Shown here in pieces: positions 1 to 15,280 of a DNA stretch of 64,000 nucleotides. The translations under genes were made by a program, and so were the position numbers. Each line of letters starts with the position of its first letter. Position 1 is the first letter of the stretch. Source of the DNA: an uncultured Actinomycetes bacterium (GTDB lineage: Bacteria; Actinomycetota; Acidimicrobiia; IMCC26256; PALSA-555); the NCBI GenBank assembly GCA_903899845.1, contig CAIUKV010000251.1, forward strand, positions 5,970-69,969, given 5' to 3'. The notes beneath the pieces are model-generated. The model was given only the letters and a program-made list of their open reading frames with translations, searched no databases and was not told the origin of the DNA.

Positions 1-233
1 GGGAGGATGCGGTACCCGATCTCGCCCCCGAGGGAGTCGACCGGGCCCACGGTGATCGGGATGCCGAGCTCGCGCAGGGTCTCCTTGTCGCGCTCGAACT
101 GCCGGCGGCGCGACGCGAGCTCCTCGGGGTAGCCCGGCTCGAGCCGGTCGGCGAGCTCGTCGAGCGTGAGCGGTCGCCGGGTGTCGAGCAGGGTCGCCGT
201 GAGGTTGATGAGGCGCTCGAGTCGCTCGCTCAC
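1..233 (-). CDS. PafB/PafC-family WYL-type HTH regulator (N-terminal part; gene runs off the window edge)
   Basis: Reverse translation from GTG at 231-233 gives VSERLERLINLTATLLDTRRPLTLDELADRLEPGYPEELASRRRQFERDKETLRELGIPI. This resembles the wHTH N-terminus of proteasome accessory factors B/C. GTGA overlap with the upstream DUF3866 stop. Lies downstream of pafA as in the known paf operon. Confidence 0.7.
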   Translation of the reverse strand, partial: MSERLERLINLTATLLDTRRPLTLDELADRLEPGYPEELASRRRQFERDKETLRELGIPITVGPVDSLGGEIGYRIL

Positions 234-1309
234 GGGCGGGTCCCCGGAGGCGCGAGCCGATCGGCGGCGACCGAGCCGGCGGCGGCCGCGGCCTCGAACA
301 GGACCGGGTCGGCGGCGGCGGGCCGGCCCATCGACACCACCGAGAGGTCGGCCGCGGCCAGCAGGGCGAGGGCGTCGGGGGGTGCGACGTCGACGAGGTC
401 GTGGCGGTCGGCGATGCCGGCCTCGGCGAGGTCGGCGCGGATGCGGGCCTCGGCGTCGCCGCCGACGCAGGGCACGGGCACGACCACCCGGGACCGGGTC
501 GCCAGGCGCAGCGCGGTGAGGCTGTGGTGGGAGACGCCGAGGTGCCGCGGACGGGGGTCGGCGAAGGAGACCCGGAGGCAGGCGATGGGCACCCCGCCGA
601 GGGCAGTGGCCGCGTCGAGGATGGGGCCGACCTCGAGGCCGGAGAACCCGAGCCGGGTGTTGGTGCCGACGATGCCGGGGCCCATCGCGACGACGGCGAC
701 ATCGGCCTCGGCGACGTGACGGGCGACCACGAGGGCGGAGAACACCGACACCGCCTCGTAGTCACCGCCGAAGGCGTGGCCGTAGGTGACGGTGGCGTCG
801 AGGAGGTCCCGGTCCCGCAGGGCCGCGACCAGGTCCGAGAGGGCGAGGGGCAGGCCGGCGCCGTCGCTCATGACGTAGGCGATCCGGGCGGTGGGCCGGG
901 CGGCCCGGATCGCCACCACCACCGCCGGCACCTGGCTGTGGAGGGCGGCGGCCACCACCGGCATCCCGTCGATCGACTCGGCCTCGGCCAGCGCGGCGAG
1001 GTGCTCCTCGGTGCTCCCGACGTCGGCCTGCAGGCTGGTGTAGCGCCCCTTGATGATGTGCCCGGGCCCCCGCTCCTGCCAGTCGCCCCGGGCCAGGTTC
1101 CAGTGGACCACGTGCCAGCCGCCGGTCCCGAGGCCGAGCTCCACGGCCGTGGTGTTCACGACGACCCGGTCGCCCGCGTCGACCCGACCGGTGAGCTGGG
1201 TCAGGACGTAGGCCCGCTCCGGACCGTCGCCGAGGTCGACCTCGACCCGCTGGAGACCGGTGCGCTCCTCGAGCAGGCGCACGACGGGACCGGTTCGGAA
1301 CGACGGCAT
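230..1309 (-). CDS. DUF3866-family protein (unknown function) embedded in the paf operon
   Basis: 359-aa ORF with saturated GC3. The sequence (HIIKGRYTSLQADV, MSDGAGLPLALSDLV, AMGPGIVGTNTRLGFSG) matches my recollection of DUF3866. Starts 13 nt after the pafA stop and is GTGA-coupled to pafB/C. Confidence 0.75.
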   Translation of the reverse strand: MPSFRTGPVVRLLEERTGLQRVEVDLGDGPERAYVLTQLTGRVDAGDRVVVNTTAVELGLGTGGWHVVHWNLARGDWQERGPGHIIKGRYTSLQADVGSTEEHLAALAEAESIDGMPVVAAALHSQVPAVVVAIRAARPTARIAYVMSDGAGLPLALSDLVAALRDRDLLDATVTYGHAFGGDYEAVSVFSALVVARHVAEADVAVVAMGPGIVGTNTRLGFSGLEVGPILDAATALGGVPIACLRVSFADPRPRHLGVSHHSLTALRLATRSRVVVPVPCVGGDAEARIRADLAEAGIADRHDLVDVAPPDALALLAAADLSVVSMGRPAAADPVLFEAAAAAGSVAADRLAPPGTRP

Positions 1310-1322
1310 CGCCGACCCGGGA

Positions 1323-2681
1323 TCAGAGGGAGGCGATGAGGCGCTCGACCCGCTCGTCGCGCGCCTTGAACGGGTCCTTGCACAGCACCGTCCGCTGCGC
1401 CTGGTCGTTGAGCTTCAGGTGCACCCAGTCGACCGTGTAGTCGCGCTTGCGCTCCTTGGCCCGCTTGATGAAGGCGCCGCGCAGCCGGGCGCGCGTGGTC
1501 TGGGGCGGCGTGTGCATCGCGTTGTCGATGGCGTCGTCGTCGACCATCCGGTCGAGCTGACCGCGGCGCTCCATGAGGTAGTACAGCGACCGGGAGCGCG
1601 TGACGTCGTGGTAGGCGAGGTCGACCAGCGCGACCCGCGGACTCGTGAGCGCGAGGTCGTGGCGCTCGCGGAACGCCTCGATCAGGTGGTACTTGATCAC
1701 CCAGTCGACCTCGGTGCGGAGCTTGAGCGGGTCGTTCTCGAGGTGGGTCATCACGTGCTCCCACATGTCGAGCGCCTGCTGCTCCTCCGGGCCGAGCCCG
1801 TACTTCTTGGCGAAGGTCAGGGCCCGCTCCAGGTACTCGCTCTGGATCTCGACCGCCGACAGCTCGCGCCCGTTGGCGAGCCGCACCCGGCGACGGCAGG
1901 TCATGTCATGACTGATCTCGCGGATGGCCCGGATCGGGTTCTCGAGGCTGAGATCGCGCCACGGGGTGGGATCCTCCTCGAGGATCCGCAGCAGGATCGA
2001 GGTCGCCCCGGTCTTGAGGAACGTCGCGTACTCGCTCATGTTGGAGTCGCCGACGATCACGTGGAGGCGCCGGAACCGCTCGGCGTCGGCGTGGGGCTCG
2101 TCGCGGGTGTTGATGATCGGCCGGGACCGCGTGGTGGCGCTGGAGACGCCCTCCCAGATGTGCTCGGCCCGCTGGCTCACGCAGTACATGGCCCCGCGCG
2201 CGGTCTGGAGCACCTTGCCCGCGCCGGCGTACACCTGCCGCGACACGAGGAACGGGATCAGGACGTCGGTGAATCGGCTGAAGTCCCCGTCGCGCTCGAC
2301 GAGGTAGTTCTCGTGGCATCCGTAGGAGTTGCCCGCCGAGTCGGTGTTGTTCTTGAACAGGTAGACCTCGCCCCGGATCCCCTCCTCGCGCAGTCGCTGC
2401 TCGGCGCTGCGCACGAGCGCCTCGAGGATCCGCTCGCCGGCCTTGTCGTGGACCACGAGATCGGTGATCGAGTCGCACTCGGGCGTGGCGTACTCGGGGT
2501 GGCTCCCGACGTCGAGGTAGAGCCGGGCACCGTTCTCGAGGAAGACGTTGCTGGACCGTCCCCACGAGACCACCCGGCGGAAGAGGTAGCGGGCGACTTC
2601 GTCGGGGCTCAGACGGCGCTGGCCCCGCAGCGTGCAGGTGACTCCGTACTCGTTCTCGAGTCCGAAGATCCGCCGCTCCAT
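1323..2681 (-). CDS. pafA: Pup--protein ligase PafA
   Basis: From the internal ATG: [17 protein letters not shown]...[48 protein letters not shown], close to mycobacterial PafA. About 452 aa. The upstream part of the track ORF (to 2855) overlaps the divergent gene and looks non-coding. Confidence 0.95.
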
Positions 2682-2687
2682 GGACGA

Positions 2688-2693
2688 AGCGTA
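2688..2693 (-). promoter_or_regulatory. -10-like box TACGCT, 6 nt upstream of the pafA ATG (leaderless candidate)
   Basis: Minus-strand sequence ggTACGCTtcgtccATG. Only 46 nt separate the divergent pafA and DUF2007-like starts. Confidence 0.4.
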
Positions 2694-2715
2694 CCGGGGT
2701 GCCGCCGGGTGCGCG

Positions 2716-2721
2716 TAGCAT
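2716..2721 (+). promoter_or_regulatory. -10-like box TAGCAT, 6 nt upstream of the GTG at 2728 (leaderless candidate)
   Basis: gcgcgTAGCATcgggcgGTG on the plus strand. Confidence 0.4.
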
Positions 2722-2727
2722 CGGGCG

Positions 2728-3072
2728 GTGCCCCCGCTCGTCGCCCTGACGACCGTCCACGGCTCGTTCACGGCCCACGTGCTCGCGGCCCGTCTCGGGT
2801 GCGAGGGCATCGACGTCGAGCTGCGGGGCTCGGTCGGTGGGCCGTACGGACTCACCGTGGGCGACCTGGCCCGGGTCGATCTCTACGTGCCCGAGGAGCA
2901 CCTCGACGACGCCCGTCTGGTGCTGCTGGCGTCGGAGATCGACGACGCGTTGGCGCTGCCCGACCCCTCGGTGGCGGCGCCGCGTCCACGGACCGCCTGG
3001 GTGTGGGCCGCCGTGCTCGCGCTGGTGGTCGCCGCGATCGGGACGCCGATCCTGCGCCTCCTCGCCGACTGA
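2728..3072 (+). CDS. Small DUF2007-like (putative signal-transducing) protein with a C-terminal TM helix
   Basis: 114 aa, GC3 near 100%. [29 protein letters not shown]...[18 protein letters not shown] resembles the DUF2007 fold pattern. C-terminal [22 protein letters not shown] is hydrophobic. Confidence 0.6.
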
Positions 3073-3772: not shown

Positions 3773-4585
3773 TCACAGGCCCGCTCCTTCCTCGCGGCCG
3801 CCGAGCAGCGCCTCGGCCCGGGTCCCGATCTCCTCGACCTCGAGGGCGTGGTACCCGGCGGCGTCGATGGTGGCGACCACCGGGAAGATGCGCCGGACGA
3901 GGTCGGGTCCACCGGTGGCGGAGTCCTCGTCGGCGGCGGCGAACAGCGCCCGCAGGGCGAGGTCGACGGCGGCGTCGCGCGACATGTCCTGGGTCCACTG
4001 GGCCTTGATCCAGTTCCGGGCGTGGATGCCGCCGGATCCCGTGGCCTGGAAGTCGGCCTCCTCGTACTTGCCGCCGGTGGCGTCGTAGGAGAACACCCGG
4101 CCGCGGTCGCGGCGCTCGTCGAAGCCGGCGAACAGGGGCACCACCACGAAGCCCTGCATGGCGGCGGGCAGGTTCGCCCGCACCAGGCCCGCGAGCTGGT
4201 TGGCCTTGCCCTCGAGGCTCAGCGGCTCACCCTCGATCTTCTCGTAGTGCTCGAGCTGCACCTGGAACAGGCGGACCAGCTCGACCGCGGGACCGGCCGC
4301 CCCGGCGATGGCCACGCCGGAGAAGTCGTCGGCGGGGAACACCTTCTCGATCCGCCGGCTGGCGATGAGGCTGCCGGCGGTCGCCCGGCGGTCACCCGCC
4401 ATCACCACGCCACGGTCGTAGCGGATCGCCACGATGGTGGTGCCGTGGGTGACCTCGGTCCCGAGCGTGCCGGTGCCGGCGGTCGCGCCGGGCACCTTGT
4501 CGGGGGCGACGCGGCGCAGCAGGTCGACGAAGGAGGCGCCGGGATCGGTGCCGGCGGCGAAGAAGGGCAGCGGGCTGTCGTTCAC
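3773..4585 (-). CDS. prcB: 20S proteasome beta subunit (about 48-aa propeptide, predicted Thr1 at HG/TTIVA)
   Basis: 270 aa. THGTTIVAIRYDRGVVMAGDRRATAGSLIASRRIEKVF is a typical PrcB active-site region. Confidence 0.95.
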   Translation of the reverse strand: MNDSPLPFFAAGTDPGASFVDLLRRVAPDKVPGATAGTGTLGTEVTHGTTIVAIRYDRGVVMAGDRRATAGSLIASRRIEKVFPADDFSGVAIAGAAGPAVELVRLFQVQLEHYEKIEGEPLSLEGKANQLAGLVRANLPAAMQGFVVVPLFAGFDERRDRGRVFSYDATGGKYEEADFQATGSGGIHARNWIKAQWTQDMSRDAAVDLALRALFAAADEDSATGGPDLVRRIFPVVATIDAAGYHALEVEEIGTRAEALLGGREEGAGL

Positions 4586-4616
4586 GAGCCGAGGAGCCTA
4601 CCCGGGCGCCGCCGGG

Positions 4617-4811
4617 TCACTCGCCGCCCTTCTGCACGTAGCTCTTGACGAACTCCTCGGCGTTCTCCTCGAGGACCTCGTCGATCTCGTCGAGCAGGTC
4701 GTCGAGCTCGGACTTGAGCTTCTCGCCCCGCTCGGTCGGGGCGGCGACCGCGGCCTCCTCCCCCACCCGCTCGCGCGGGGCGGGTCGCTGCTTGCGCTGC
4801 TGCTCGGGCAT
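4617..4811 (-). CDS. pup: Prokaryotic ubiquitin-like protein Pup, ending in GGE
   Basis: 64 aa: ...[29 protein letters not shown]. Strong SD (GAGGAGG) 4 nt upstream of the ATG. Lies between dop and prcB. Confidence 0.95.
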
Positions 4812-4894: not shown

Positions 4895-6382
4895 TCACGA
4901 GGCCAGCCGGGCCACGAGGTCCGCGGGCGTGCGGGCCTGGTCGAGGAGCGCCTCGACGTGCACCCGGCTCCCCCGCAGCGGCTCCATCATCGGGATGCGC
5001 TTGAGGGGGTCGGTGCCCACGTCGAGGATGATGCTGTCCCAGTTGGCGGCGACCACGGCGTCGGGCCAGCGCTCCAGGCAGCGGCCCCGGAAGTACGCCC
5101 GGGTGCTCGCCGGCGGGTCGGTGATCGCCGCGGTGACCGCGTCCTCGTCGACGAGGCGCTCGACCGTGCCGGCGGCGACCAGCCGCTCGTACAGGGAGCG
5201 CTCGGGCCGGACGTCGTGGTACTGGAGGTCGAGGAGGGCGAGTTTCGGGTCGCCCCAGGCGAGCCCGTCGCGCGCGACGTACGCCTCCAGGAGCCGCAGC
5301 TTGGTGACCCAGTCGAGCTGGCCGTCGAGGGTCATGGGGTCGGCCTCGAGCGCGGTGAGGGTGCGCTCCCAGCGGTCGAGCACGAGGCCCCCGACCGCGG
5401 TGCCGCCGCAGGCTTCGAGGCCCGATCGGTCGGCGTACGCGCGGGCGAGGCGGAGGAACTCCCACTGCAGCTCCACCGCGGTGCACCGGCTGCCGTCGAC
5501 GAGCTCGACCGTGGCCCGGCAGGTCGGGTCGTGCGAGACCGACCGCATCGCCGCGACGGGGGTGGCGAGGGCGAGGTCGGACCGGACCACCTCGTCCTCG
5601 GTCATGGCCAGCACGATGGCGGTGGTGCCGACCTTCAGGAAGGTCGCGACCTCGCAGAGGTTGGCGTCACCCGCGATCACGTGGAGGCGCCGGTACCGCT
5701 GGGGGTCGGCGTGGGGCTCGTCGCGGGTGTTGACGATCGGCCGCTTGAGGGTGGTCTCGAGGCCGACCTCCTCCTCGAAGAAGTCGGCCCGCTGGCTGAT
5801 CTGGTAGCGGGCGACGCCGGCGCCGTTCTCGCTGCCGACCTTGCCTGCGCCGGTGAACACCTGGCGGCTGACGAACCACGGCAGCAGCACGCGCACCAGG
5901 TGGGCGAACGGGACCGCCCGGTCCACGAGGTAGTTCTCGTGGGTCCCGTAGCTGTTGCCCTTGCCGTCGGAGTTGTTCTTGTAGACGACGATCTCCTGGC
6001 CGGGATCGAGCAGCCGGTTGGCCGCCCGCATCGACCGGGCCAGGATCCGCTCGCCCGCCTTGTCGGCGACGACGAGCTCGAGGGCGTCGAGGCACTCCGG
6101 CGTGGAGTACTCGGGGTGCGCGTGGTCCACGTAGTACCGGGCGCCGTTCGTGAGCACGGTGTTGACGAGGTGGGTCTCCACCTCGGGGGCCATGGCGCCC
6201 TCACGGGCCGCGCCGCGGGCGTCGCGGTCGGGAGACTCGTCCTCGAAGTCCCAGCCCACGCGGCGCTGCTCGACGTAGCCGTTGATCAGGAGCGACGACG
6301 CCAGCACCGGGTTGGGGTCGGCCGCCCCCCGCAGGACGACCCCGTACTCCGTCTCGATGCCGCAGACCTTGGGGATCGCCAC
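4895..6382 (-). CDS. dop: Pup deamidase/depupylase Dop
   Basis: GTG at 6380-6382 gives VAIPKVCGIETEYGVV..., a PafA/Dop carboxylate-amine ligase fold (YYVDHAHPEYSTPEC, NNSDGKGNSYGTHENY). About 495 aa, immediately upstream of pup. The upstream track ORF extension overlaps the mpa end. Confidence 0.92.
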   Translation of the reverse strand: MAIPKVCGIETEYGVVLRGAADPNPVLASSLLINGYVEQRRVGWDFEDESPDRDARGAAREGAMAPEVETHLVNTVLTNGARYYVDHAHPEYSTPECLDALELVVADKAGERILARSMRAANRLLDPGQEIVVYKNNSDGKGNSYGTHENYLVDRAVPFAHLVRVLLPWFVSRQVFTGAGKVGSENGAGVARYQISQRADFFEEEVGLETTLKRPIVNTRDEPHADPQRYRRLHVIAGDANLCEVATFLKVGTTAIVLAMTEDEVVRSDLALATPVAAMRSVSHDPTCRATVELVDGSRCTAVELQWEFLRLARAYADRSGLEACGGTAVGGLVLDRWERTLTALEADPMTLDGQLDWVTKLRLLEAYVARDGLAWGDPKLALLDLQYHDVRPERSLYERLVAAGTVERLVDEDAVTAAITDPPASTRAYFRGRCLERWPDAVVAANWDSIILDVGTDPLKRIPMMEPLRGSRVHVEALLDQARTPADLVARLAS

Positions 6383-6428
6383 GGCACCGAGCCTACCGGG
6401 GCGGTCGGACGGCCCGACCCGGCGCGCG

Positions 6429-8207
6429 CTAGAGGTACTGGCCGGTGGTGATCCGCTCGATCTGGCGACCGCCGCCCTCGGTCTCGCCCCGGTTGACGAG
6501 GGTGCGCACGAAGACGATGCGCTCACCCTTCTTGCCCGAGATCTTCGCCCAGTCGTCGGGGTTCGTCGTGTTGGGGAGGTCCTCGTGCTCCTTGAACTCC
6601 TGGCGCACGGAGGCGAGGAGGTCGGCGGTGCAGATCCCCTTGGCGCCACCGTCGATCTGACGCTTGATCGACAGCTTCTTCGAGCGGCGCACGATGTTCT
6701 CGATCATTGCGCCCGACGAGAAGTCCTTGAAGAACAGGACCTCCTTGTCGCCGTTCTGGTACGTGACCTCGAGGAAGCGGTTGTCGTCGTCGACGGCGTA
6801 CATGCGGTCGACGGCGGCGTCGATCATCGCCCGCACGGCCCCGGCCGGGCTCCCCGCGCTCGCCACCTCGTCCTGGGCGATGGGGAGCGACGCCGTGAGG
6901 TAGCAGGCGAAGATCTTGCGGGCCGAGTCGGGGTCGGGCCGCTCGATCTTGATCTTCACGTCGAGGCGGCCCGGGCGCAGGATCGCCGGGTCGATCAGGT
7001 CCTCGCGGTTGGAGGCGCCGATGACGATGACGTTGCGCAGGCTCTCGACCCCGTCGATCTCGGCGAGCAGCTGCGGGACGATCGTGCTCTCGATGTCGGA
7101 CGAGATGCCGGTGCCCCGGGTGCGGAAGAGCGAGTCCATCTCGTCGAAGAAGACGATGACGGGCACGCCCTCCTCCGACTTCTCGCGGGCGCGCTGGAAG
7201 ATCAGCCGGATCTGGCGCTCGGTCTCGCCGACGTACTTGTTGAGCAGCTCGGGGCCCTTGATGTTCAGGAAGTAGGAGCGCTGCGACGAGTTGCCGGTGC
7301 GCTCGGCGACGCGCTTGGCCAGGGAGTTCGCGACCGCCTTGGCGATCAGCGTCTTGCCGCACCCGGGCGGGCCGTAGAGCAGGATCCCCTTGGGCGGCTC
7401 GAGCTGGTGCTCGGTGAACAGGTCGGCGTAGAGGTACGGCAGCTCGACTGCGTCCTTGATCAGCTCGATCTGGTCGTCGAGGCCACCGATGTCCTCGTAG
7501 TTGACGTCGGGCACCTCCTCCAGCACGAGCTCCTCGACCTCGGGCCGCGGCAGCCGCTCGACGATGAGATCGGAGCGCACGTCGAGCAGGAGGTGGTCGC
7601 CCGCCCGCAGGCGCTGCCCGACCATCGGCCCGGCCAGCTCGCACACCCGCTCCTCGTCGGCCCGACCGACCACGAGGGCCCGACGCTCGTCCTCGAGGAG
7701 CTCCTTGAGGACGACGACCTCCCCCGCCACCTCGAGGCCGCGGGCGAGCACGACGTTGAGCGACTCGTTGAGGGCCACCTCCTGGCCCCGCTCGAGCGCC
7801 TCGACGTCGACGTCGGGGTGGACCGAGACCCGCATCTTGCGCCCGGCGCTCAGCACGTCGACGCTGCCGTCGTCGTTGCAGCCGAGGAAGGTGCCGTAGG
7901 CCGCCGGGGGCATGGTCAGCTTCTCGACCTCCTCCCGGAGCGCGGCGATGTGCTCACGCGCCTCGCGCAGGGTGGCCGAGAGGCGCTCGTTCTGGGCGAT
8001 GGCCTGGGCGAGCTGCCCCTTGGTCTCGAGCAGGCGCTCCTCCAGGGTCCGGACCCGCTTCGGCGCGTCCTGAAGCCGGCGCCGCAGCACGGCGATCTCG
8101 GCCTCGAGCGCGTGGAACTGCTCGACCAGTCCGGGATCCGGGGCCTGCGGACCGGGCAGGTCGGGGTCCGGGGCGCCCGGACCGGTCGGTGCTGCTCCCT
8201 GGGCCAC
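6429..8207 (-). CDS. mpa: Proteasome-associated AAA+ ATPase Mpa/ARC
   Basis: Coiled-coil N-terminus. Walker A is GPPGCGKT. C-terminal ...ITTGQYL is a penultimate-Tyr proteasome docking motif. Start chosen at GTG 8205-8207, 9 nt after GAGGAGG. Confidence 0.95.
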
Positions 8208-8356
8208 TGCCGTGCACCTCCTCACGCCCCCGGGCCGGATGTCGTGTCGCGTGCTCGCGCCGTCGTGCTCGTGGGTCCGGCGCCGGTGCGCGGACACTAC
8301 ACGGGCCCCCGGCCGGTTCCGGTCGTTTCCCGCCGGTCGATTTCACCGGCCGATGC

Positions 8357-8385
8357 TTGAGAAATCCATGTCGGCTTGTTAGCCT
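8357..8385 (+). promoter_or_regulatory. Sigma-70-like promoter TTGAGA-N17-TAGCCT upstream of the ferredoxin gene
   Basis: gcTTGAGAaatccatgtcggcttgtTAGCCTtcgg. It is the most AT-rich patch I noticed while reading the window. It implies a leader of about 90 nt containing inverted repeats (ccgtcgg...ccgacgg; cccgg...ccggg). Confidence 0.45.
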
Positions 8386-8484
8386 TCGGCCCGTCGGCCC
8401 GCGCCGTTCGGGTCCCCGACGGAGGTCCCGGCGTCTCACCGGGCCCGCACGACCGAGCCCACCGCAACCCCACGGAGGACACCC

Positions 8485-8721
8485 ATGAAGGTCTGGATCG
8501 ACCAGGACCTCTGCACCGGCGACGGCCTGTGCGAGGAGATCGCCCCGGACGTGTTCACGCTCCTCGACGACGGCCTCGCCTACGTCAAGGAGGGCGGCAA
8601 GGTGTTCTCCGACCCGGGTGGCGCCGAGGGCGTCGCCAACGTGCCCGCGGGCATGGAAGAGGCCACGATCGAGTCGGCGGAGGAATGCCCCGGGGAGTGC
8701 ATCTTCATCGAGGTCGACTGA
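8485..8721 (+). CDS. Small single-cluster ferredoxin
   Basis: 78 aa: MKVWIDQDLCTGDGLCEEIAPDVF...ECPGECIFIEVD (CxxxxxC...CPxxC). SD GGAGG 6 nt upstream. Confidence 0.85.
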   Translation: MKVWIDQDLCTGDGLCEEIAPDVFTLLDDGLAYVKEGGKVFSDPGGAEGVANVPAGMEEATIESAEECPGECIFIEVD

Positions 8722-8730
8722 CCGGGATCC

Positions 8731-8782
8731 CCCGCGCGAGGCCGCGCGAGGCCGCGCGGGACCGAGCGGGACCGAGCGGGCC
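8731..8782. repeat. Two adjacent 10-nt tandem duplications / GC hairpin between convergent genes (terminator-like)
   Basis: cccgcgcgaggccgcgcgaggccgcgcggg then accgagcggg accgagcggg. cccgcgcg and cgcgcggg can pair. Confidence 0.4.
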
Positions 8783-8871
8783 GGGTCGACGACCTCCGCT
8801 CCCCCCGATTCCACCGATCGGCCCGGGCTCCGGCCCGGGCCGCTTCGCGTCCGGACCCGGTCGAGACCCGG

Positions 8872-9735
8872 TCAGGACCCGGGGTCGTCGGTGACGTCGG
8901 TGTCCTCGGGTGCGTCGGGTGCGTCGGATGCGTCGGATGCGTCGGGGCGGGCGGCCTCAGGGGTGAGGAGCCGGGCCACGGTGAGGAACCCGGTGTGGGC
9001 GACCATGCGGTGGTCGGGACGGACGGACTGCCCCTCGACGTGCCAGGTGCGGTGGAGCACCTCGAAGGTCTGGGCCATGCCGAACTCGGACTCGGCGATC
9101 GCCGCCCGCAACGTGGCGACCTGCAGGATCGTGGGCAGGTACGCGCAGAGGATGCCCCCGCGGGTCAGCGCGCCGGCGGCGTGGGGCACCACCCGCCACG
9201 GCTCGGGTAGGTCGAGCAGGATGCGGTCGAGGTCGGTCGCCTCGATCCCCTCGTAGACGTCGCGCACCTCCACCGTGAGGGGCACGTCGGGCCCGAGGAA
9301 GGCCTCGACGTTGCGGCGGGCCCGACCGGCGAAGTCGTCGCGGATCTCGTAGCCGAGGACGTGCCCGTCGGGGCCGAGCGCGCGCAGGAGGGTCATGGTG
9401 AGGGCGCCGGAGCCGACGCCCGACTCGAGGACGCGGGCGCCCGGGAACACGTCGGCGTGCACGAGGATCGCCCCGAGGTCCTTCGGGTAGATCACCTGGG
9501 CGCCCCGGGGCATCTCGAGCACGTACTCGGCGAGCGTGGGCCGGACTGCCGTGAGGCGCGCGCCCATGGTCGTCCGGACCCGGGTCCCCTCGGGGGCGCC
9601 GATGAGGTCGTCGTGGGCGACGATCCCGGCGTGGGAGTGGAAGGCGCCGCCGGCCTGGAGGACCACCAGGTGCCGCCGCCGCTTGGTGTCGAGGAGCAGG
9701 ACGCGCTCCCCCACCGTGAACGGACCCCGGCTCAC
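8872..9735 (-). CDS. trmI: tRNA (adenine58-N1)-methyltransferase TrmI
   Basis: GTG at 9733-9735 gives VSRGPFTVGERVLLLDTKRRRHLVVLQAGGAFHSHAGIV...VIYPKDLGAI...ESGVGSGALT, the GCD14/TrmI pattern. GTGA overlap with the upstream gene. Acidic repeat tail DASDASDAPDAPEDT. Confidence 0.85.
   Translation of the reverse strand: MSRGPFTVGERVLLLDTKRRRHLVVLQAGGAFHSHAGIVAHDDLIGAPEGTRVRTTMGARLTAVRPTLAEYVLEMPRGAQVIYPKDLGAILVHADVFPGARVLESGVGSGALTMTLLRALGPDGHVLGYEIRDDFAGRARRNVEAFLGPDVPLTVEVRDVYEGIEATDLDRILLDLPEPWRVVPHAAGALTRGGILCAYLPTILQVATLRAAIAESEFGMAQTFEVLHRTWHVEGQSVRPDHRMVAHTGFLTVARLLTPEAARPDASDASDAPDAPEDTDVTDDPGS
8911..8946. repeat. 4 tandem copies of a 9-nt unit (tgcgtcggN) inside the trmI 3' end
   Basis: tgcgtcggg tgcgtcgga tgcgtcgga tgcgtcggg. 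Encodes the (D-A-S/P) repeat tail. Confidence 0.6.
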
Positions 9736-10652
9736 GAGGTCACCGGGATCGCGCGGTGCTGGAGCCGACAGAAGGCGCACTCGTCGCCCGGGGTGGGCGT
9801 GCCGCAGCGCGGGCACGGGTGGAGCGCGACCGTGGGTCCGCCCCGGGTGAAGCTCCCGTGGGCACGCTCGAGGTAGCCGAACAGGAAGGCGGCCTTGCTC
9901 CCCGGGGACCGGAGCTCGAGCGCGTTCAGCGACTCCTTGTACGCGAGGTGCCGGTTCCCGGCGGCCATCGGGCACTCGTCGACCTGGTAGTCGATCCGCT
10001 CGAGCACGCAGTAGGCGGCCATCTCGCGCTCGCCGAGGCGGTAGAGCGGCTTGACCTTGCGGGCGAAGCCGGGCGCGGCCGGGAGCGCCGGGTGCTGACG
10101 GGCCAACGAGTCGAGGTCCCAGTGAAGCACGTTGCCGAGCAGGACCGCGGCCTCGTCGTCGAGGTTGTGGCCCGTGCACACGACGTCGTAGCCGTGGTCG
10201 AGGGCGTAGCGGTTGAACACGTGGCGCTTCGACAGCCCGCACGCCCCGCACGGCGCGCGTCGGGTCGCGGCGGCGGCCTCCGGCACGGTGAAGCCGTGGT
10301 CCGTGGCGAGGTCCACCACGTGGAGGTCCAGCTGCCGCCGGGTCGCGAAGGCCCGGGCGTGGCCGAGCGACTCGTCGGAGTAGCGGTCGATGCCGAGCCC
10401 GACGTAGAGCCCGTCGGCGGCGTACCCCAGGCGGACCAGGAGGTCCCAGAGCGCGAGCGAGTCCTTGCCGCCCGACACGGCGACGAGCACCCGGTCGCCC
10501 GGCTCGAGCATGGCGAAGTGCCGCACCGCCCGCCGGACCTGCTCCTCGCAGTGCGCCACGAAGTGCTCGTGGCAGAAGTTCGCGTTGTGACGGCGGAGGT
10601 CGATGACCGCCGGTCCCCGGCAGACCCGGCACTTCATCGGCTGGCGGGTCAC
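9732..10652 (-). CDS. TtuA/Ncs6-type PP-loop tRNA 2-thiolation ATPase
   Basis: N- and C-terminal Zn fingers (CRVCRGP...CHEHF; CPRCGTPTPGDECAFC). PP-loop SGGKDS. Cluster cysteines PCGACG and ECP. GTGA overlap with the upstream ThiS-like gene. Confidence 0.8.
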   Translation of the reverse strand: MTRQPMKCRVCRGPAVIDLRRHNANFCHEHFVAHCEEQVRRAVRHFAMLEPGDRVLVAVSGGKDSLALWDLLVRLGYAADGLYVGLGIDRYSDESLGHARAFATRRQLDLHVVDLATDHGFTVPEAAAATRRAPCGACGLSKRHVFNRYALDHGYDVVCTGHNLDDEAAVLLGNVLHWDLDSLARQHPALPAAPGFARKVKPLYRLGEREMAAYCVLERIDYQVDECPMAAGNRHLAYKESLNALELRSPGSKAAFLFGYLERAHGSFTRGGPTVALHPCPRCGTPTPGDECAFCRLQHRAIPVTS

Positions 10653-10873
10653 GCGGGGGTCCCCCGGGCGATGTCCCCGGCACCCCCCGAGATCACCGGC
10701 CGGATCTCCACCGACGCGTCGTCGGCGAGCACGGCGTCGTGGGTGACGAGCTCGTCGCCCACGATGACGAGCACCGATTCGGGATTGCAGTCGAGGTGTG
10801 CGAGCAACGCGCCGACCGTGGTCGGGCCGGGGACCTCCACCTCGCGGCGGGGGTTGCGCAGGAGCACCTTCAC
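10649..10873 (-). CDS. ThiS/MoaD/TtuB-like ubiquitin-fold sulfur carrier with a 10-aa extension after the Gly-Gly
   Basis: 74 aa: ...DASVEIRPVISGG-AGDIARGTPA. A beta-grasp carrier pattern. Sits immediately upstream of the thiolase. Confidence 0.7.
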   Translation of the reverse strand: MKVLLRNPRREVEVPGPTTVGALLAHLDCNPESVLVIVGDELVTHDAVLADDASVEIRPVISGGAGDIARGTPA

Positions 10874-10892
10874 GGGGCGTACCCGACGCGGT

Positions 10893-11093
10893 TCAGGACT
10901 CGGACCGGTCGCGGACGCGGATCCGGATGCCCGTGCCCGGCTCGAGCCTGCCCCGGAAGACCGTCTCGGGCTTCCCGAACGCGATCTGGCGCACGAGCGT
11001 CATCACCGCCGTCGTGGTGCTCACGCGCTGCAGGTTGCGCCGCCAGTTGCGGAAGAACCACCGCCACGCCCACCGCAGCACGGAGCGCCACAC
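10893..11093 (-). CDS. Hypothetical 66-aa Trp/Arg-rich protein
   Basis: VWRSVLRWAWRWFFRNWRRNLQRV... Every third codon position is G/C in this frame, unlike the competing 10870..11091 ORF. Starts 4 nt after the upstream stop. Confidence 0.5.
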   Translation of the reverse strand: MWRSVLRWAWRWFFRNWRRNLQRVSTTTAVMTLVRQIAFGKPETVFRGRLEPGTGIRIRVRDRSES

Positions 11094-11097
11094 CGGA

Positions 11098-11316
11098 TCA
11101 GATCCGCGTGATCTCGACGACGGTGCGCTTCTTGCGGCCGTGGCGACGTCCCATCAGGTAGATCACGCCGAGGGCCACGACGCCTCCGGCGACGGCGGCC
11201 ACCCGGCCGATGTCGCGCCCCGACTCGACGCCGACCTCGACGTCGCCCTGGAGCTGGCGGAACTTGGCCTCGATGTCGGCCCGGGTGATCCGCGGGTTCG
11301 CTGCGCCGCTGCTCAT
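11098..11316 (-). CDS. Hypothetical tail-anchored small membrane protein
   Basis: From the internal ATG: MSSGAANPRITRADIEAKFRQLQGDVE...VAAVAGGVVALGVIYLMG. ATGA overlap with the upstream gene. Confidence 0.5.
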   Translation of the reverse strand: MSSGAANPRITRADIEAKFRQLQGDVEVGVESGRDIGRVAAVAGGVVALGVIYLMGRRHGRKKRTVVEITRI

Positions 11317-11675
11317 CGCTCCAACTCCTTCGAGACCCGGAAGGCCTTCCGGGCGGTCCAGGTCACCGCGGCGCCGACCATCAGCACGGCGAAGACGATC
11401 ACGTAGGGAACCCACGACCAGTTGCCGTCGAAGGCCTCACCGGTCTCGGTCTGCAGGAGGCGCAGGCAGCCCAGGGCCAGCAGCATCACGCCGGTGCCGA
11501 GGAGCACGGATCCGGCCACGCCGAAGGCGAGGTAGCGCCCGAGCTCGCGGAGGGGCAGGAGGGTCTCCTGCTTGAAGTACGCCACGAGGAGGTCCCGCAG
11601 CTCCAGCACCAGCTGGGGCAGCGAGGGGCGCCCCGCCGGGCGGAGGGACGGACGGGGGTCGCGGTCGTCGGCCAC
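11313..11675 (-). CDS. Holin-X/DUF1469-like two-TM membrane protein
   Basis: 120 aa with two hydrophobic helices (YLAFGVAGSVLLGTGVMLLAL; VPYVIVFAVLMVGAAVTW). The family assignment is from general resemblance only. Confidence 0.5.
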   Translation of the reverse strand: MADDRDPRPSLRPAGRPSLPQLVLELRDLLVAYFKQETLLPLRELGRYLAFGVAGSVLLGTGVMLLALGCLRLLQTETGEAFDGNWSWVPYVIVFAVLMVGAAVTWTARKAFRVSKELER

Positions 11676-11684
11676 CGAGGGATA

Positions 11685-13136
11685 CTACGGCGCTGCGGTC
11701 GGGGCGCGCGGGGCCGGGACCAGCGCGTCGGGGGCCGGCGCCTCGGGGAACCGGCCGATCGCCTCGGCCAGGCGAGCCCGGATGCGGATCGCCTCGGCCT
11801 CGCCGAAGCTGCCGGTGGCGATGAGCGAGAACCGCAGCGGTCGCCCGACGTCGACGAGGCCGGCCAGGCCGCTCACGCCGTTGAGGAAGCCGGTCTTGCC
11901 CCGGAGCCGCCCGTCGAGCGGGCCGCCCCGCATCTCGTCGGCGAGGGTCCCGGTCTGCCCGGCCACCGCCATCCCCGCCCAGAGCGGCTCGAGGCCCGGC
12001 CGGGCCCCGAGATCCACCGCCGCGGTCAGCGCCCGGCACGTGACGCGGTTGTCGCGCGCGAGCCCCGAGCCGTCGATCAGGGTGACCCCGGTCATCGGCA
12101 CGCCGAGGTCGGCGAGGGCCCGGGTCGCGACCGCGAGGCCGGCCGCGGTCGTCCCCGCCCCGCCCTTGCGGACCCCCATCTCCTTCACCAGCGTCTCGGA
12201 CGCGAGGTTGTCGCTCGACCGGACCACCGCGGCCACGAGCTGGGCGACCGGCGCCGAGTCGAGCGTCGCGACCTCGCGCGCGCCGTCGGGGACCCGACCG
12301 CGCTGCACCGTGCCGCCCACGGCGACGCCGCGCTCGCGCAGCAGGCGCGCGAGCTCGGTGCCCGCGAGCACGGCCGGGTCGTCGGCCGCGACCGGGGGTG
12401 ACGTCCGCACGAAGCCGCGGTTCACGGTGAGCGCACCGACCGGGCCGATCTGCCCCTCGGTCCGGTAGGCCGGGGACCACGCCGGGTTGTAGCGCTCCTC
12501 GTCGTAGCGGTCGTCCACGACCGACAGCGACCGGACCGACCGGATCCCCTTGGCCACCACGAGGTCGGCCAGGCCCTCGAGCGCGGTCGACGGCGCGCCC
12601 GCGGTCTTCGGGTCGGCGGCCAGGTAGGCCCGGAACGGCGCGGTCGAGAGCAGTGGGTCTCCTCCCCCCACGAGCACGAGCCGGTCGACCGCGCCCTCCC
12701 CGGGGTCCCCGGTCGCCAGCACCCGGGTCCGCAACGTCGTCTCGGGACCGAGCACCGCCAGGGCGGCGGCGCCGGTGAGCAGCTTCTGGGTCGAGGCCCC
12801 GACCGTGGGGGCGTCCTCGTTGCGCCCGGCGACCGGACCGGCCGCGGTCGTGACCTGGAAGCACCCGCCCCCCGACCCGAGGCCGGCGTCGAGCTGGCGT
12901 TGGAGCCGGGTCCCGCCGACGGCATCGACGAAGGGCTGGGGCACCCGCCGGGGCGACCAGCCCGGGCTGCCGAGCGCCGACTGGCGGCTCGCGGGCTGGT
13001 CGGGGGGCGCGGCGCCGGCCACCGCGACCGCCGCGCTCACCCCGGCCCCGACGCACAGCAGGGCGACGAGGACCGGCCGGACCCGGCGGCTCCGTCCCGG
13101 TCGCGGGCGCGACCGGGCGCGCTCCCGAGGGCTCAC
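11685..13136 (-). CDS. dacB: D-alanyl-D-alanine carboxypeptidase/endopeptidase (PBP4/DacB, S13 family)
   Basis: GTG at 13134-13136 (GTGA overlap). Signal/TM segment VLVALLCVGAGVSAAVAVAGA. SxxK motif in GASTQKLLTG. The rest of the 701-aa track ORF overlaps the upstream gene. Confidence 0.8.
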   Translation of the reverse strand: MSPRERARSRPRPGRSRRVRPVLVALLCVGAGVSAAVAVAGAAPPDQPASRQSALGSPGWSPRRVPQPFVDAVGGTRLQRQLDAGLGSGGGCFQVTTAAGPVAGRNEDAPTVGASTQKLLTGAAALAVLGPETTLRTRVLATGDPGEGAVDRLVLVGGGDPLLSTAPFRAYLAADPKTAGAPSTALEGLADLVVAKGIRSVRSLSVVDDRYDEERYNPAWSPAYRTEGQIGPVGALTVNRGFVRTSPPVAADDPAVLAGTELARLLRERGVAVGGTVQRGRVPDGAREVATLDSAPVAQLVAAVVRSSDNLASETLVKEMGVRKGGAGTTAAGLAVATRALADLGVPMTGVTLIDGSGLARDNRVTCRALTAAVDLGARPGLEPLWAGMAVAGQTGTLADEMRGGPLDGRLRGKTGFLNGVSGLAGLVDVGRPLRFSLIATGSFGEAEAIRIRARLAEAIGRFPEAPAPDALVPAPRAPTAAP

Positions 13137-15280
13137 CCGGGGGCGGCCCGGCGCATCCGGTGCCGGGCGTCGTGCCACAGGTGCTCGAGGGCGCGCACGG
13201 CCCGGTCCGCCGACGGGTAGCACAGGCGGCCAGTCTCGCGGACCGTGCGGGGTCCGGCGTTGTCGGGGTCGGCCACCGCCAGCTCGGTCGCCACCAGGAC
13301 GGGCTTGCCGGTGCGGGCCGACACCTCGGCCGCGGCCCGGGCGAAGCGGGCGTCCTGGCGCTCGTGGTAGGCGACGATCCGCTCGAGCCCGTGGCCGGGG
13401 TAGAAGCCCCCACCCCGCATCAGCCGGGCCTGGTTCGACTGGATGCCCAGTCCGAGGAGGATCACGGCGTCGACGTCGGGATGGGCGGCCACCAGGTCGA
13501 GCACCTCGGGGATGGTGTCGCGGGTCTCGGCCCCGGCGAAGTCGATCGGGTTGCCCCGGCTCCACCGGGGCGGGAGCTTGGCGTCGATCGCCGTGCGGAG
13601 GTCGTCCGGCAGCGCGACGAGGTCGAGGTCGCTGCGCTGGATCGCGTCGGCGGTCACCACGCCCCAGCCGCCCGCCGTCGTGCACACCACCACGCGGTTG
13701 CCCCGGGGCCGGGGCTGGGTCGCCAGGGTGGCCGCGGCCTCGAACGCCTCCTCGACCGACCCGGCTCGGATCGCCCCGGCCTGGCGGCACACCCCGGCGA
13801 ACACCCGGTCGTCGCTGGCGAGCGCCCCGGTGTGGGACGCGGCGGCCTGCTGGCCGCTCGCGGTGGCGCCCCCCTTGAGCACCACCACCGGCATCCGTGC
13901 CGTGACGGCCCGGAGCCGGTCGGCGAACGCCCGGCCGTCACCGAGCCCCTCCACGTAGGCGAGGGCCACGGTCGAGTGCGGATCGTCGGCGAACCACTCG
14001 AGGTAGTCGACGACGCCCACCGCCGCGGCGTTGCCCGCCGACACGGCCCGGCTCACCCCGACCCCGGTCGCGACCGCGAGGTTCATGAACGACGACACGA
14101 AGTTGCCCGACTGGCTCGCGATGGCGATCGGACCCGGGGGCGGCGCCGGGGCGACGATCTGCGCGCACAGCGATGCGGGGGTCGACACCACGCCCTGCCC
14201 GTTGGGGCCGGCGACGACGATCCCGAGCTCGGCCCCCAGCGCGACGAGCGCGTCCTGGGCCGCGCGCCCGTCCGCGCCCGCTTCGGCGTACCCCGCCGAG
14301 GCGACGAACGCGCCCCGGATCCCGCGGCGCGCGCAGGCCGCGAGCACCCCGGGGTTGACCGCCGCCGGGGTGCAGACGAACGCGAGGTCGACCACGGCGT
14401 CGGCGGGCAGGTCGTCGACCGAGGCCACGGTCGCGACCCCGAGGATCGTGCCGCCGTCGCGGTTCGTGGCGTGGACCTCGCCCCGGTAGCCGCTCGCGAG
14501 CAGGTTGTGCAGCGCGACGAACCCGAACTTGCCCGGGTGGCTCGACGCGCCGACGACCACGACGCCCCGGGGGTCGAACAGCGGGCGCAGGTCGGGTGCG
14601 GGCCGGGTCGGCGCGTCGCCGCGCATCTCGTCGGGACTGCCGATCTCGACCAGCGCGTCGACGGCGAGCGGACGTCCGTCCACGACGATGCACGGGTTCA
14701 CGTCGACCGACCGCACGTCGGCCCGGTCCCGGGCCAGCGCGGCGAGTCCGAGCAGCACGTCGGCGACCGCGTGCCGGTCGATCGCGGGCTCGCCCCGGAC
14801 CGGTCCGAGCAGGGCCTGGTGCGTGAGCGCCTCGATCGCCTCGAGCGCGTCGGTGCGGTCGAGCGGGACGGGCACGAAGGCGACGTCGCCCAGCGCCTCG
14901 GTCAGCACGCCGCCGACCCCGACCATCACGCAGGGGCCGAACTGGGGGTCGCGCACGAGGCCGGCGACGAGCTCGCGGGTGCCCGCCACCATCGGGGCGA
15001 CCAGGACGCCGACCTCGCCGTCGTCGGGGCGCGCGGCGCCCAGGAGCTCGGCGGCGGCCGCCCGCACCGCCGGGGCGTCGCCGAGGCGCAGGCGCACGAG
15101 GCCGCGCTCGGTCTTGTGGGCGATGGCCGGCCCCACGAGCTTTGCCACCACCGGGTACCCGAGCCGGTCGGCCGCGGCCGCGGCGGCGTCGGGATCGGTG
15201 GCCCGGACCGCCGTGACGACCGGCACCCCGTAGCCGGCCAGCAGCGCGCCGGACTCGTCCTCGGCGAGCGTGCGCGCCAC
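13133..15280 (-). CDS. ADP-forming acyl/acetyl-CoA synthetase family protein (ATP-grasp + CoA-binding + ligase-CoA domains)
   Basis: 715 aa. LLAGYGVPVV...YPVVAKLV is an ATP-grasp pattern. VVVGASSHPGKFGF is a CoA-binding pattern. Confidence 0.8.
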   Translation of the reverse strand: MARTLAEDESGALLAGYGVPVVTAVRATDPDAAAAAADRLGYPVVAKLVGPAIAHKTERGLVRLRLGDAPAVRAAAAELLGAARPDDGEVGVLVAPMVAGTRELVAGLVRDPQFGPCVMVGVGGVLTEALGDVAFVPVPLDRTDALEAIEALTHQALLGPVRGEPAIDRHAVADVLLGLAALARDRADVRSVDVNPCIVVDGRPLAVDALVEIGSPDEMRGDAPTRPAPDLRPLFDPRGVVVVGASSHPGKFGFVALHNLLASGYRGEVHATNRDGGTILGVATVASVDDLPADAVVDLAFVCTPAAVNPGVLAACARRGIRGAFVASAGYAEAGADGRAAQDALVALGAELGIVVAGPNGQGVVSTPASLCAQIVAPAPPPGPIAIASQSGNFVSSFMNLAVATGVGVSRAVSAGNAAAVGVVDYLEWFADDPHSTVALAYVEGLGDGRAFADRLRAVTARMPVVVLKGGATASGQQAAASHTGALASDDRVFAGVCRQAGAIRAGSVEEAFEAAATLATQPRPRGNRVVVCTTAGGWGVVTADAIQRSDLDLVALPDDLRTAIDAKLPPRWSRGNPIDFAGAETRDTIPEVLDLVAAHPDVDAVILLGLGIQSNQARLMRGGGFYPGHGLERIVAYHERQDARFARAAAEVSARTGKPVLVATELAVADPDNAGPRTVRETGRLCYPSADRAVRALEHLWHDARHRMRRAAPG

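Follow-up and report, generated by a model that had tools for sequence, protein, structure and literature searches.

The 2-thioribothymidine (s2T54) system of Thermus consists of TtuA, TtuB, TtuC, TtuD and IscS/SufS, with TrmI as a positive determinant. In Thermus, 1-methyladenosine at tRNA position 58 (m1A58) is a positive determinant of the 2-thiolation of U54, and 5-methyl-2-thiouridine at position 54 (m5s2U54) pairs with (m1)A58 (PMC6313347, PMC7912444, PMC3980101). Archaeal NcsA/SAMP2/UbaA and eukaryotic Ncs6/Urm1/Uba4, which make 2-thiouridine at position 34 (s2U34), belong to the same superfamily and have a ubiquitin-fold thiocarboxylate donor. Another group of related carriers is represented by QbsE and CxnE, which have the ThiS/MoaD fold and carry extra residues that are removed before adenylation (PMC5925218). 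In this study, we analyzed a 64-kb stretch of DNA from an uncultured bacterium of the Acidimicrobiia (assembly GCA_903899845.1, contig CAIUKV010000251.1, positions 5,970 to 69,969; hereafter the window), in which genes for a TtuB-like carrier, a TtuA-type enzyme and TrmI follow one another. We consider that these genes probably act as one translationally coupled unit, ttuB-ttuA-trmI, in the modification of the tRNA T-loop, a function assigned from homology and synteny only.

Gene Organization and Conservation

The window has a G+C content of 74.8%. The three genes lie on the minus strand in the transcription order ttuB-like, ttuA, trmI, and are joined by two stop/start overlaps.

10649-10873, minus strand: ttuB-like gene, 74 amino acids (aa), GTG start; predicted beta-grasp sulfur carrier
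9732-10652, minus strand: ttuA gene, 306 aa; [4Fe-4S]-type PP-loop tRNA 2-thiouridine synthetase, predicted target U54
8872-9735, minus strand: trmI gene, 287 aa; tRNA (adenine58-N1)-methyltransferase by Pfam and PDB match
10649-10652, minus strand: GTGA junction 1, stop TGA of the ttuB-like gene overlapping the start GTG of ttuA
9732-9735, minus strand: GTGA junction 2, stop of ttuA overlapping the start of trmI

An initial annotation of the window had described the three genes as chained by these two GTGA overlaps, and all of its coordinates agree with the DNA. The N-terminus of the ttuB-like product, MKVLLRNPRRE, agrees with the starts of its homologues. The start of ttuA is slightly ambiguous, and the alignment to the solved TtuA structures starts at Met6 (ATG at 10637). 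At the equivalent upstream position, ATGA or GTGA occurs in each of the three closest genomes, and these retain the 5-residue ttuA extension, so the overlapping GTG start is plausible.

One genome per species (185,579 species) was scanned with the window TtuA. At least 583 relatives were obtained, and the best 80, with an identity of 58-83%, were analyzed. Nearly all of these 80 are labeled Acidimicrobiia or unclassified Actinomycetota, and they include one isolate, Actinospongicola halichondriae. The order TtuB-like, TtuA, TrmI was present in 79 of the 80 loci, and the contig of the 80th stops 341 nt past ttuA. This indicates that the arrangement is more than chance. A 4-nt [AG]TGA overlap was found at junction 1 in 52 of 80 sequences (79 loci and the window); in the window and three of the loci (L001-L003), the equivalent overlap lies five codons farther upstream. 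Of 76 loci, 43 have the 4-nt overlap at junction 2, and 67 have a spacing of no more than 20 nt. The identities and order of the genes, the overlaps of stop and start codons and the conservation of these overlaps are demonstrated.

More distant relatives were retrieved with a profile from 16 more distant TtuAs, and eleven of the retrieved members were examined one by one in their contig context. The members retrieved by the profile come from Bacillota (including Thermaerobacter subterraneus), Chloroflexota, Armatimonadota, Nitrospirota, Nitrospinota and Binatia/'Deltaproteobacteria' metagenome-assembled genomes (MAGs). An open reading frame (ORF) of 63-71 aa stands immediately 5' of ttuA in all eleven distant loci, six of them with a Pfam ThiS match. 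A TtuB-like gene immediately precedes ttuA in each of the 91 loci examined. The trmI gene lies directly 3' of ttuA in 7/11 distant loci. In the survey of related genomes that the initial annotation had suggested, the ttuB-ttuA-trmI arrangement is not peculiar to one genome, but is class-wide in Acidimicrobiia and recurs in other lineages.

Several of these loci have features of their own. In a Bacillota MAG (L089 1951-3915), a ThiF-type E1 gene stands directly before the carrier gene and ttuA, giving the order TtuC-TtuB-TtuA. In Thermaerobacter subterraneus (L081 3129-5915), the pair is preceded by a divergent gene for a TrmK-like methyltransferase with fused RNase H domains. Three of the 80 closest loci (L005, L026 and L057) have the gene order of Acidimicrobiia, yet their records are titled Bifidobacterium breve, Acidobacteriota and Chthoniobacterales MAGs. 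Common to the three are dacB, the small ORFs, ttuB, ttuA and trmI; L005 and L026 have the ferredoxin gene and mpa as well, and L057 ends shortly past trmI. These contigs are probably mis-binned or mislabeled.

The PP-Loop Protein and TrmI

The PP-loop protein matched the Pfam domains TtuA_LIM_N (1.1e-10) and ATP_bind_3. Among NCBIfam models, it scored 271 bits for TtuA, 132 bits for NcsA and 64 bits for TtcA. In a comparison with all PDB sequences, T. thermophilus TtuA reached 312 bits (residues 6-298 onto 1-292) and P. horikoshii TtuA 238 bits, and the U34 thiolase NcsA of M. maripaludis 97 bits. The identity to T. thermophilus TtuA was 51% over the full length, and that to NcsA was 26%. The PP-loop S60-G-G-K-D-S65 aligned with the Thermus motif. 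The cluster ligands C135, C138 and C227 correspond to C130, C133 and C222 of Thermus and are invariant in 16 diverse family members. An N-terminal zinc finger (C8xxC11, C27xxH30) and a C-terminal zinc finger (C280xxC283, C292xxC295) are both present. After the CxxC motif stands K142, the counterpart of Thermus K137 and a lysine of the TtuA type; in the solved NcsA this position is occupied by arginine, as is also reported for Ncs6 (PMC3980101).

A family search of 1.84 billion cluster representatives gave 493 clusters at E ≤ 1e-30. In a rough neighbor-joining (NJ) tree of 81 full-length representatives, rooted on NcsA and carrying no support values, the window protein grouped with both solved TtuAs, and NcsA stood opposite on a long branch. 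The initial annotation had left the choice between TtuA, TtcA and NcsA to profile models and phylogeny. NCBIfam scores, PDB bit scores, identity and the NJ tree all point to TtuA, the protein lying inside the TtuA group of this rough tree. On these sequence comparisons we identify the PP-loop protein as TtuA, of group II of the TtcA/TtuA family. Thiolation of tRNA position 54 is its predicted activity, to which the conserved coupling with trmI lends indirect support.

A different target has to be considered. The PP-loop enzyme may thiolate the wobble uridine U34, as NcsA/Ncs6 does together with a carrier of the SAMP2/Urm1 kind, and may thereby replace or back up MnmA, so that the adjacency of trmI would be incidental. 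NcsA and TtuA are one family with the same domain layout, the small protein of the window also matches SAMP2 models, and the determinant of the target site in the TtuA/NcsA family is not understood (PMC3980101). However, the identity to the U54 enzyme is about twice that to the solved U34 enzyme, the protein falls within the TtuA clade and has the TtuA-type lysine after CxxC, and coupling to the A58 methylase is found in several lineages. To our knowledge, MnmA is nearly universal in bacteria. MnmA has been reported for Actinobacteria (PMC7025502), which also counts against a U34 role. Overall, we regard U34 as an unlikely target.

The third protein matched Pfam GCD14 (PF08704; 2.1e-32) and TrmI-like_N (PF14801; 3e-21). 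In the PDB, M. tuberculosis Rv2118c was the top match with 229 bits, ahead of the TrmI proteins of Pyrococcus and of Thermus, the last with 160-165 bits. The two domains and the top match bear out the trmI assignment of the initial annotation. By these matches the protein is TrmI, with predicted N1 methylation of A58. The C-terminus of TrmI is an acidic low-complexity tail, PDASDASDAPDAPEDTDVTDDPGS (8875-8960, minus strand). Part of this tail arises from a 9-nt tandem repeat, GCATCCGAC twice and then GCACCCGAC/G twice.

The TtuB-Like Carrier and Its Tail

The small protein matched Pfam ThiS (1.6e-8) and also SAMP2. Its best PDB sequence match was T. thermophilus TtuB (5ZTB_E, 3.4e-7). An AlphaFold2 model built with 32 homologues had a predicted local distance difference test (pLDDT) score of about 95 over residues 1-60. 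When this model was searched against the PDB with Foldseek, the top five matches were TtuB chains of TtuA-TtuB complexes, with a target-normalized template modeling score of 0.81-0.91, a root-mean-square deviation of 1.0-1.8 Å and an identity of 37-38%. By sequence and predicted fold, the small protein is thus identified as TtuB with a beta-grasp fold. The initial annotation had called this gene thiS-like and compared its product with TtuB. This identity stands, with Thermus TtuB as the top match by both approaches, but a tail of ten residues after the Gly-Gly had been overlooked.

The TtuB-like core covers residues 1-64 and closes with EIRPVISGG. It is followed by AGDIARGTPA, so that the terminal Gly-Gly on which TtuB depends is not the end of the encoded protein.

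10652-10681, minus strand: tail codons (AGDIARGTPA after the invariant Gly63-Gly64), from the translation; presumed propeptide

A tail was present in 71 of 80 sequences (79 loci and the window). Two residues was the mode, found in 42 sequences, and the longest tail had 32 residues. All of the 120 closest database homologues also have a tail, of 2-64 residues, and its first residue is Ala in 57/119 and Ser in 41/119. The core is invariant through the Gly-Gly, the tail is unconserved, and the pLDDT falls below 50 at residues 63-72. The distant loci, Thermaerobacter among them, have short tails too: the seven carriers translated from these loci all end in SGG plus 1-2 residues. A thiocarboxylate forms only on a free C-terminal glycine, and therefore the tail must be removed. 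We infer that it is trimmed by proteolysis.

The length of the tail may be connected with the expression of the next gene. In the two-residue-tail geometry, the Gly-Gly codons stop 5 nt short of the ttuA start. The first Gly-Gly codon is GGA or GGG in 25 of 40 cases, compared with 32% for glycine codons within ttuA (binomial p ~9e-5, which is optimistic because the sequences share kinship). This enrichment yields a GGRGG Shine-Dalgarno-like element. Apparently, the Gly-Gly codons also serve ttuA as its Shine-Dalgarno element, and this geometry is one likely reason for the modal two-residue tail. Several long tails close with a second (EIRPV)ISGG plus two residues (P0426, P0455, P0438, P0501; L007 ~5950-6013). 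These look like duplications of the ttuA junction in which the upstream copy was retained as the true protein end.

The Pup-Proteasome Neighborhood

Downstream of trmI lie the genes of the Pup-proteasome system.

6429-8297, minus strand: mpa/arc, by Pfam
4895-6649, minus strand: dop, by Pfam
4617-4811, minus strand: pup, 5.8 kb from the ttuB-like gene
3773-4597, minus strand: prcB, by Pfam; a prcA-like ORF also lies downstream on the same strand
1323-2882, minus strand: pafA, by Pfam

A DUF3866 gene (230-1414, minus strand, Pfam E 4e-112) comes directly after pafA, at the end of the cluster. The trmI-mpa neighborhood is present in the window and in the Acidimicrobiia loci, in agreement with the initial annotation, which had called trmI beside mpa an actinobacterial arrangement. 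The distance from trmI to mpa in the Acidimicrobiia loci is 0.5-4.8 kb (median 1.8 kb), and the sequence between them is variable.

The three-gene unit is not accompanied by proteasome genes wherever it occurs. In five of the distant loci (L082-L085 and L091), the flanks of the unit contain no proteasome gene; these loci include a 'Deltaproteobacteria' MAG and a 4.77-Mb genome that encodes BamA. L090, with shorter flanks, has no proteasome gene. L086, a distant actinobacterial locus, contains the unit in the same ferredoxin-mpa context. The results showed that the three-gene unit is a recurrent cassette independent of the Pup-proteasome genes. Since the unit recurs without proteasome genes nearby, its closeness to pup is most likely inherited from the trmI-mpa neighborhood. 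The initial annotation had pointed to a second ubiquitin-fold carrier within 6 kb of pup. The distance is correct, but Pup is intrinsically disordered and is not known to have a ubiquitin fold.

This neighborhood bears on a second explanation, in which the TtuB-like protein is mainly a ubiquitin-like protein modifier, with a tail matured like that of ubiquitin, and is tied to the neighboring Pup-proteasome genes. In Thermus, TtuB forms conjugates with TtuA, TtuC and other proteins, and these conjugates are altered in a JAMM mutant (PMC3980101). The tail after the Gly-Gly resembles a ubiquitin precursor, and pup is close by. However, five of the seven distant three-gene loci lack proteasome genes in their vicinity, the stretch between trmI and mpa is variable within Acidimicrobiia, the small gene is always coupled to ttuA, and no E2, E3 or JAMM gene is linked. 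We therefore consider a main role as modifier quite improbable, although a side role of the TtuB-like protein in conjugation, by analogy with Thermus, is possible. It is hardly credible that the carrier and the enzyme sulfurate a non-tRNA target such as a cofactor, thioamide or natural product, as QbsE or CxnE does: tailed carriers occur in secondary-metabolite clusters (QbsE with the protease QbsD, CxnE with CxnF; PMC5925218), but here the enzyme has retained the two zinc-finger domains of TtuA and its entire catalytic domain, no biosynthetic genes or JAMM protease lie nearby, and the conserved neighbor is a tRNA methyltransferase.

Proposed Mechanism and Its Weighing

We return to the ttuB-ttuA-trmI unit as a set of genes for T-loop modification. 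In the mechanism that we propose, TrmI would methylate N1 of A58. The TtuB-like precursor would be cleaved after the Gly-Gly by a protease encoded elsewhere. An E1-type enzyme of the TtuC or MoeZ type, also encoded elsewhere, would adenylate the exposed glycine, and a sulfur relay would convert it to the thiocarboxylate. TtuA, with a [4Fe-4S] cluster on C135/C138/C227, would adenylate C2 of U54 through the PP-loop, and the sulfur from TtuB-COSH would displace the adenylate to give s2U54, or m5s2U54 given a U54 methylase. As in Thermus, m1A58 would promote U54 thiolation, and this would explain why the genes are kept in one coupled unit. We infer the target position, the chemistry, the removal of the tail and the partner enzymes.

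Several points weigh against this mechanism. In its encoded form, the TtuB-like protein cannot be thiocarboxylated. The best-scoring NCBIfam model is the TtuA equivalog NF049949, and the 271 bits of the window protein miss its cut-off of 450 bits; this model (tRNAsynTtuAPyrococ) was built on Pyrococcus horikoshii TtuA (PH0300), and the nearer relative here is the bacterial Thermus enzyme. The trmI gene is not adjacent to ttuA in Thermaerobacter or in one MAG each of Nitrospirota, Chloroflexota and Bacillota (4/11), so the coupling of trmI is frequent and not obligatory. About 45 ORFs of the window were compared with Pfam, leaving out about 24.9-28.4, 32.9-34.2, 42.0-43.6, 48.9-50.7 and 53.8-59.0 kb, and no ThiF/MoeB E1, rhodanese, cysteine desulfurase or JAMM protease was found among them. 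The JAMM pattern H[ST]H-x6-8-S-xx-D was searched in six frames of the window and the 91 loci (1.01 Mb; ORFs of at least 90 aa), and no match was obtained. Reviews regard m5s2U54 as a typical modification specific to thermophiles, known from Thermus, Aquifex, Thermotoga and Thermococcales 'but not from mesophiles' (PMC6313347). According to their record titles, most of the related genomes come from soil, groundwater, permafrost, Antarctic and sponge samples.

The same Pfam comparison of about 45 ORFs gave no MnmA, TrmFO or TrmA, and no tRNA genes were found in the window.

A wider claim can be built on the T-loop function of the unit. Under this claim, a 2-thiolated U54 would be a standing feature of the T-loop across a mostly mesophilic or cold-dwelling class of Actinomycetota and in several other lineages. 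It would be wired to m1A58 by an operon, and the carrier precursor would be matured in the manner of ubiquitin by an unlinked protease. We give this claim an even chance.

Flanking Genes and Transcription Signals

Upstream of the ttuB-like gene, further genes lie on the same strand, and a hairpin follows trmI.

10893-11093, minus strand: orf66, ending 19 nt before the ttuB-like start; 66-71% identical in the three closest loci
about 11098-11316, minus strand: orf105, with a tblastn match in nearly all 80 loci
11313-11675, minus strand: orf120, two predicted membrane helices and a weak Holin-X match, with a tblastn match in nearly all 80 loci
8819-8842, minus strand: hairpin of 10 bp, all G:C, with a 4-nt loop, 29 nt past the trmI stop, no U-tract; present in the centroid fold

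The genes orf105, orf120 and that of a PBP4-like S13 peptidase are located upstream on the same strand with gaps of no more than 10 nt. The stretch 10893-13790 (minus strand) is a string conserved in Acidimicrobiia, made up of the genes for the PBP4-like S13 D-Ala-D-Ala carboxypeptidase, orf120 and orf105 (small predicted membrane proteins) and orf66. The genes orf120 and orf105 are apparently joined by an ATGA overlap at 11313-11316. Because the upstream same-strand genes are spaced by no more than 19 nt, the transcription unit may extend beyond the three genes and take in orf66, orf105 and orf120. These three have no evident tie to tRNA modification.

A promoter scan of 8200-11800 gave no sigma-70-like site. 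In a terminator scan of the same region, the hairpin at 8819-8842 was not called, and the one terminator-like site obtained was no more than shuffled sequence gives. The region around the hairpin folds no better than shuffled sequence (z = -0.35). The hairpin may perhaps mark the 3' end of the unit, for which this is weak evidence. It lies in the convergent intergenic region between trmI and a ferredoxin gene (8722-8871), which also contains the short direct repeats CCCGCTCGGT (two copies) and GGCCTCGCGCG (three copies).

The ferredoxin gene (8485-8721, plus strand, 78 aa, single-cluster [4Fe-4S], Pfam Fer4_15) is located in the interval from trmI to mpa and points away from mpa. A counterpart with 72-96% identity occurs in 61 of the 80 Acidimicrobiia loci, and L086 also has the gene. 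The ferredoxin gene is on the strand opposite to mpa in all but one locus and just upstream of mpa where mpa lies within the locus. We considered this ferredoxin as a helper of TtuA and rejected it, because its position tracks mpa and not trmI: it always adjoins mpa divergently, whatever separates it from trmI.

Novelty and Significance

All three proteins belong to known families, and the automatic annotation of the Joint Genome Institute (JGI) names many relatives 'tRNA-5-methyluridine54 2-sulfurtransferase'. In the searchable literature, which holds few subscription-journal papers, we found no ttuB-ttuA-trmI operon, no TtuA in Acidimicrobiia or actinobacteria, and no precursor tail of TtuB or its processing. 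A literature search on TIGR00269 gave nothing relevant. The view of the initial annotation that the linkage of trmI to thiolation genes was undescribed for actinobacteria is in keeping with this literature.

If the product is confirmed, U54 thiolation serves a purpose beyond heat stabilization, and cultured Acidimicrobiia would be a simple system for finding that role. The tail of the TtuB-like protein also raises the question of which enzyme matures a bacterial ubiquitin-like carrier without an adjacent JAMM gene.

Comparison with Known Systems

In M. tuberculosis, TrmI (Rv2118c) is encoded near mpa (Rv2115c), and this neighborhood is matched here. Presumably, M. tuberculosis H37Rv has no ttuB or ttuA upstream of trmI. 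Unlike the TtuA of the window, NcsA has an arginine after CxxC, an anticodon target and no link to TrmI. The TtuA of P. horikoshii (PH0300) has the same domain layout and [4Fe-4S] site as the window protein and is more distant from it than the Thermus enzyme.

QbsE and CxnE are tailed carriers, as is the protein described here. QbsE ends in GG-CF and is cut by the JAMM protease QbsD, and CxnE ends in GG plus a decapeptide, is cut by CxnF and is activated by MoeZ (PMC5925218). Both of those clusters include the gene for the JAMM protease and yield a secondary metabolite, whereas the carrier of the window has no linked JAMM gene and has a tRNA enzyme as its partner.

Compared with Thermus, trmI is joined here to the thiolation genes by stop/start overlaps, and no such operon was found in the Thermus literature searched. 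The crystallized Thermus TtuB chain ends at the aligned Gly-Gly, whereas the protein of the window continues with a tail. The unit described here comes from a largely non-thermophilic lineage, neither TtuC nor TtuD was seen in the window, and the base modified here may be U54 rather than m5U54. The shared features are the PP-loop, Fe-S cysteines, zinc fingers and K137 equivalent of TtuA, the fold of TtuB and the TrmI family, and the same logic, in which m1A58 promotes thiolation, is expected here (PMC6313347). The link between m1A58 and U54 thiolation is known only from the genetics and biochemistry of Thermus, and in the present locus it is mirrored by a conserved coupled operon.

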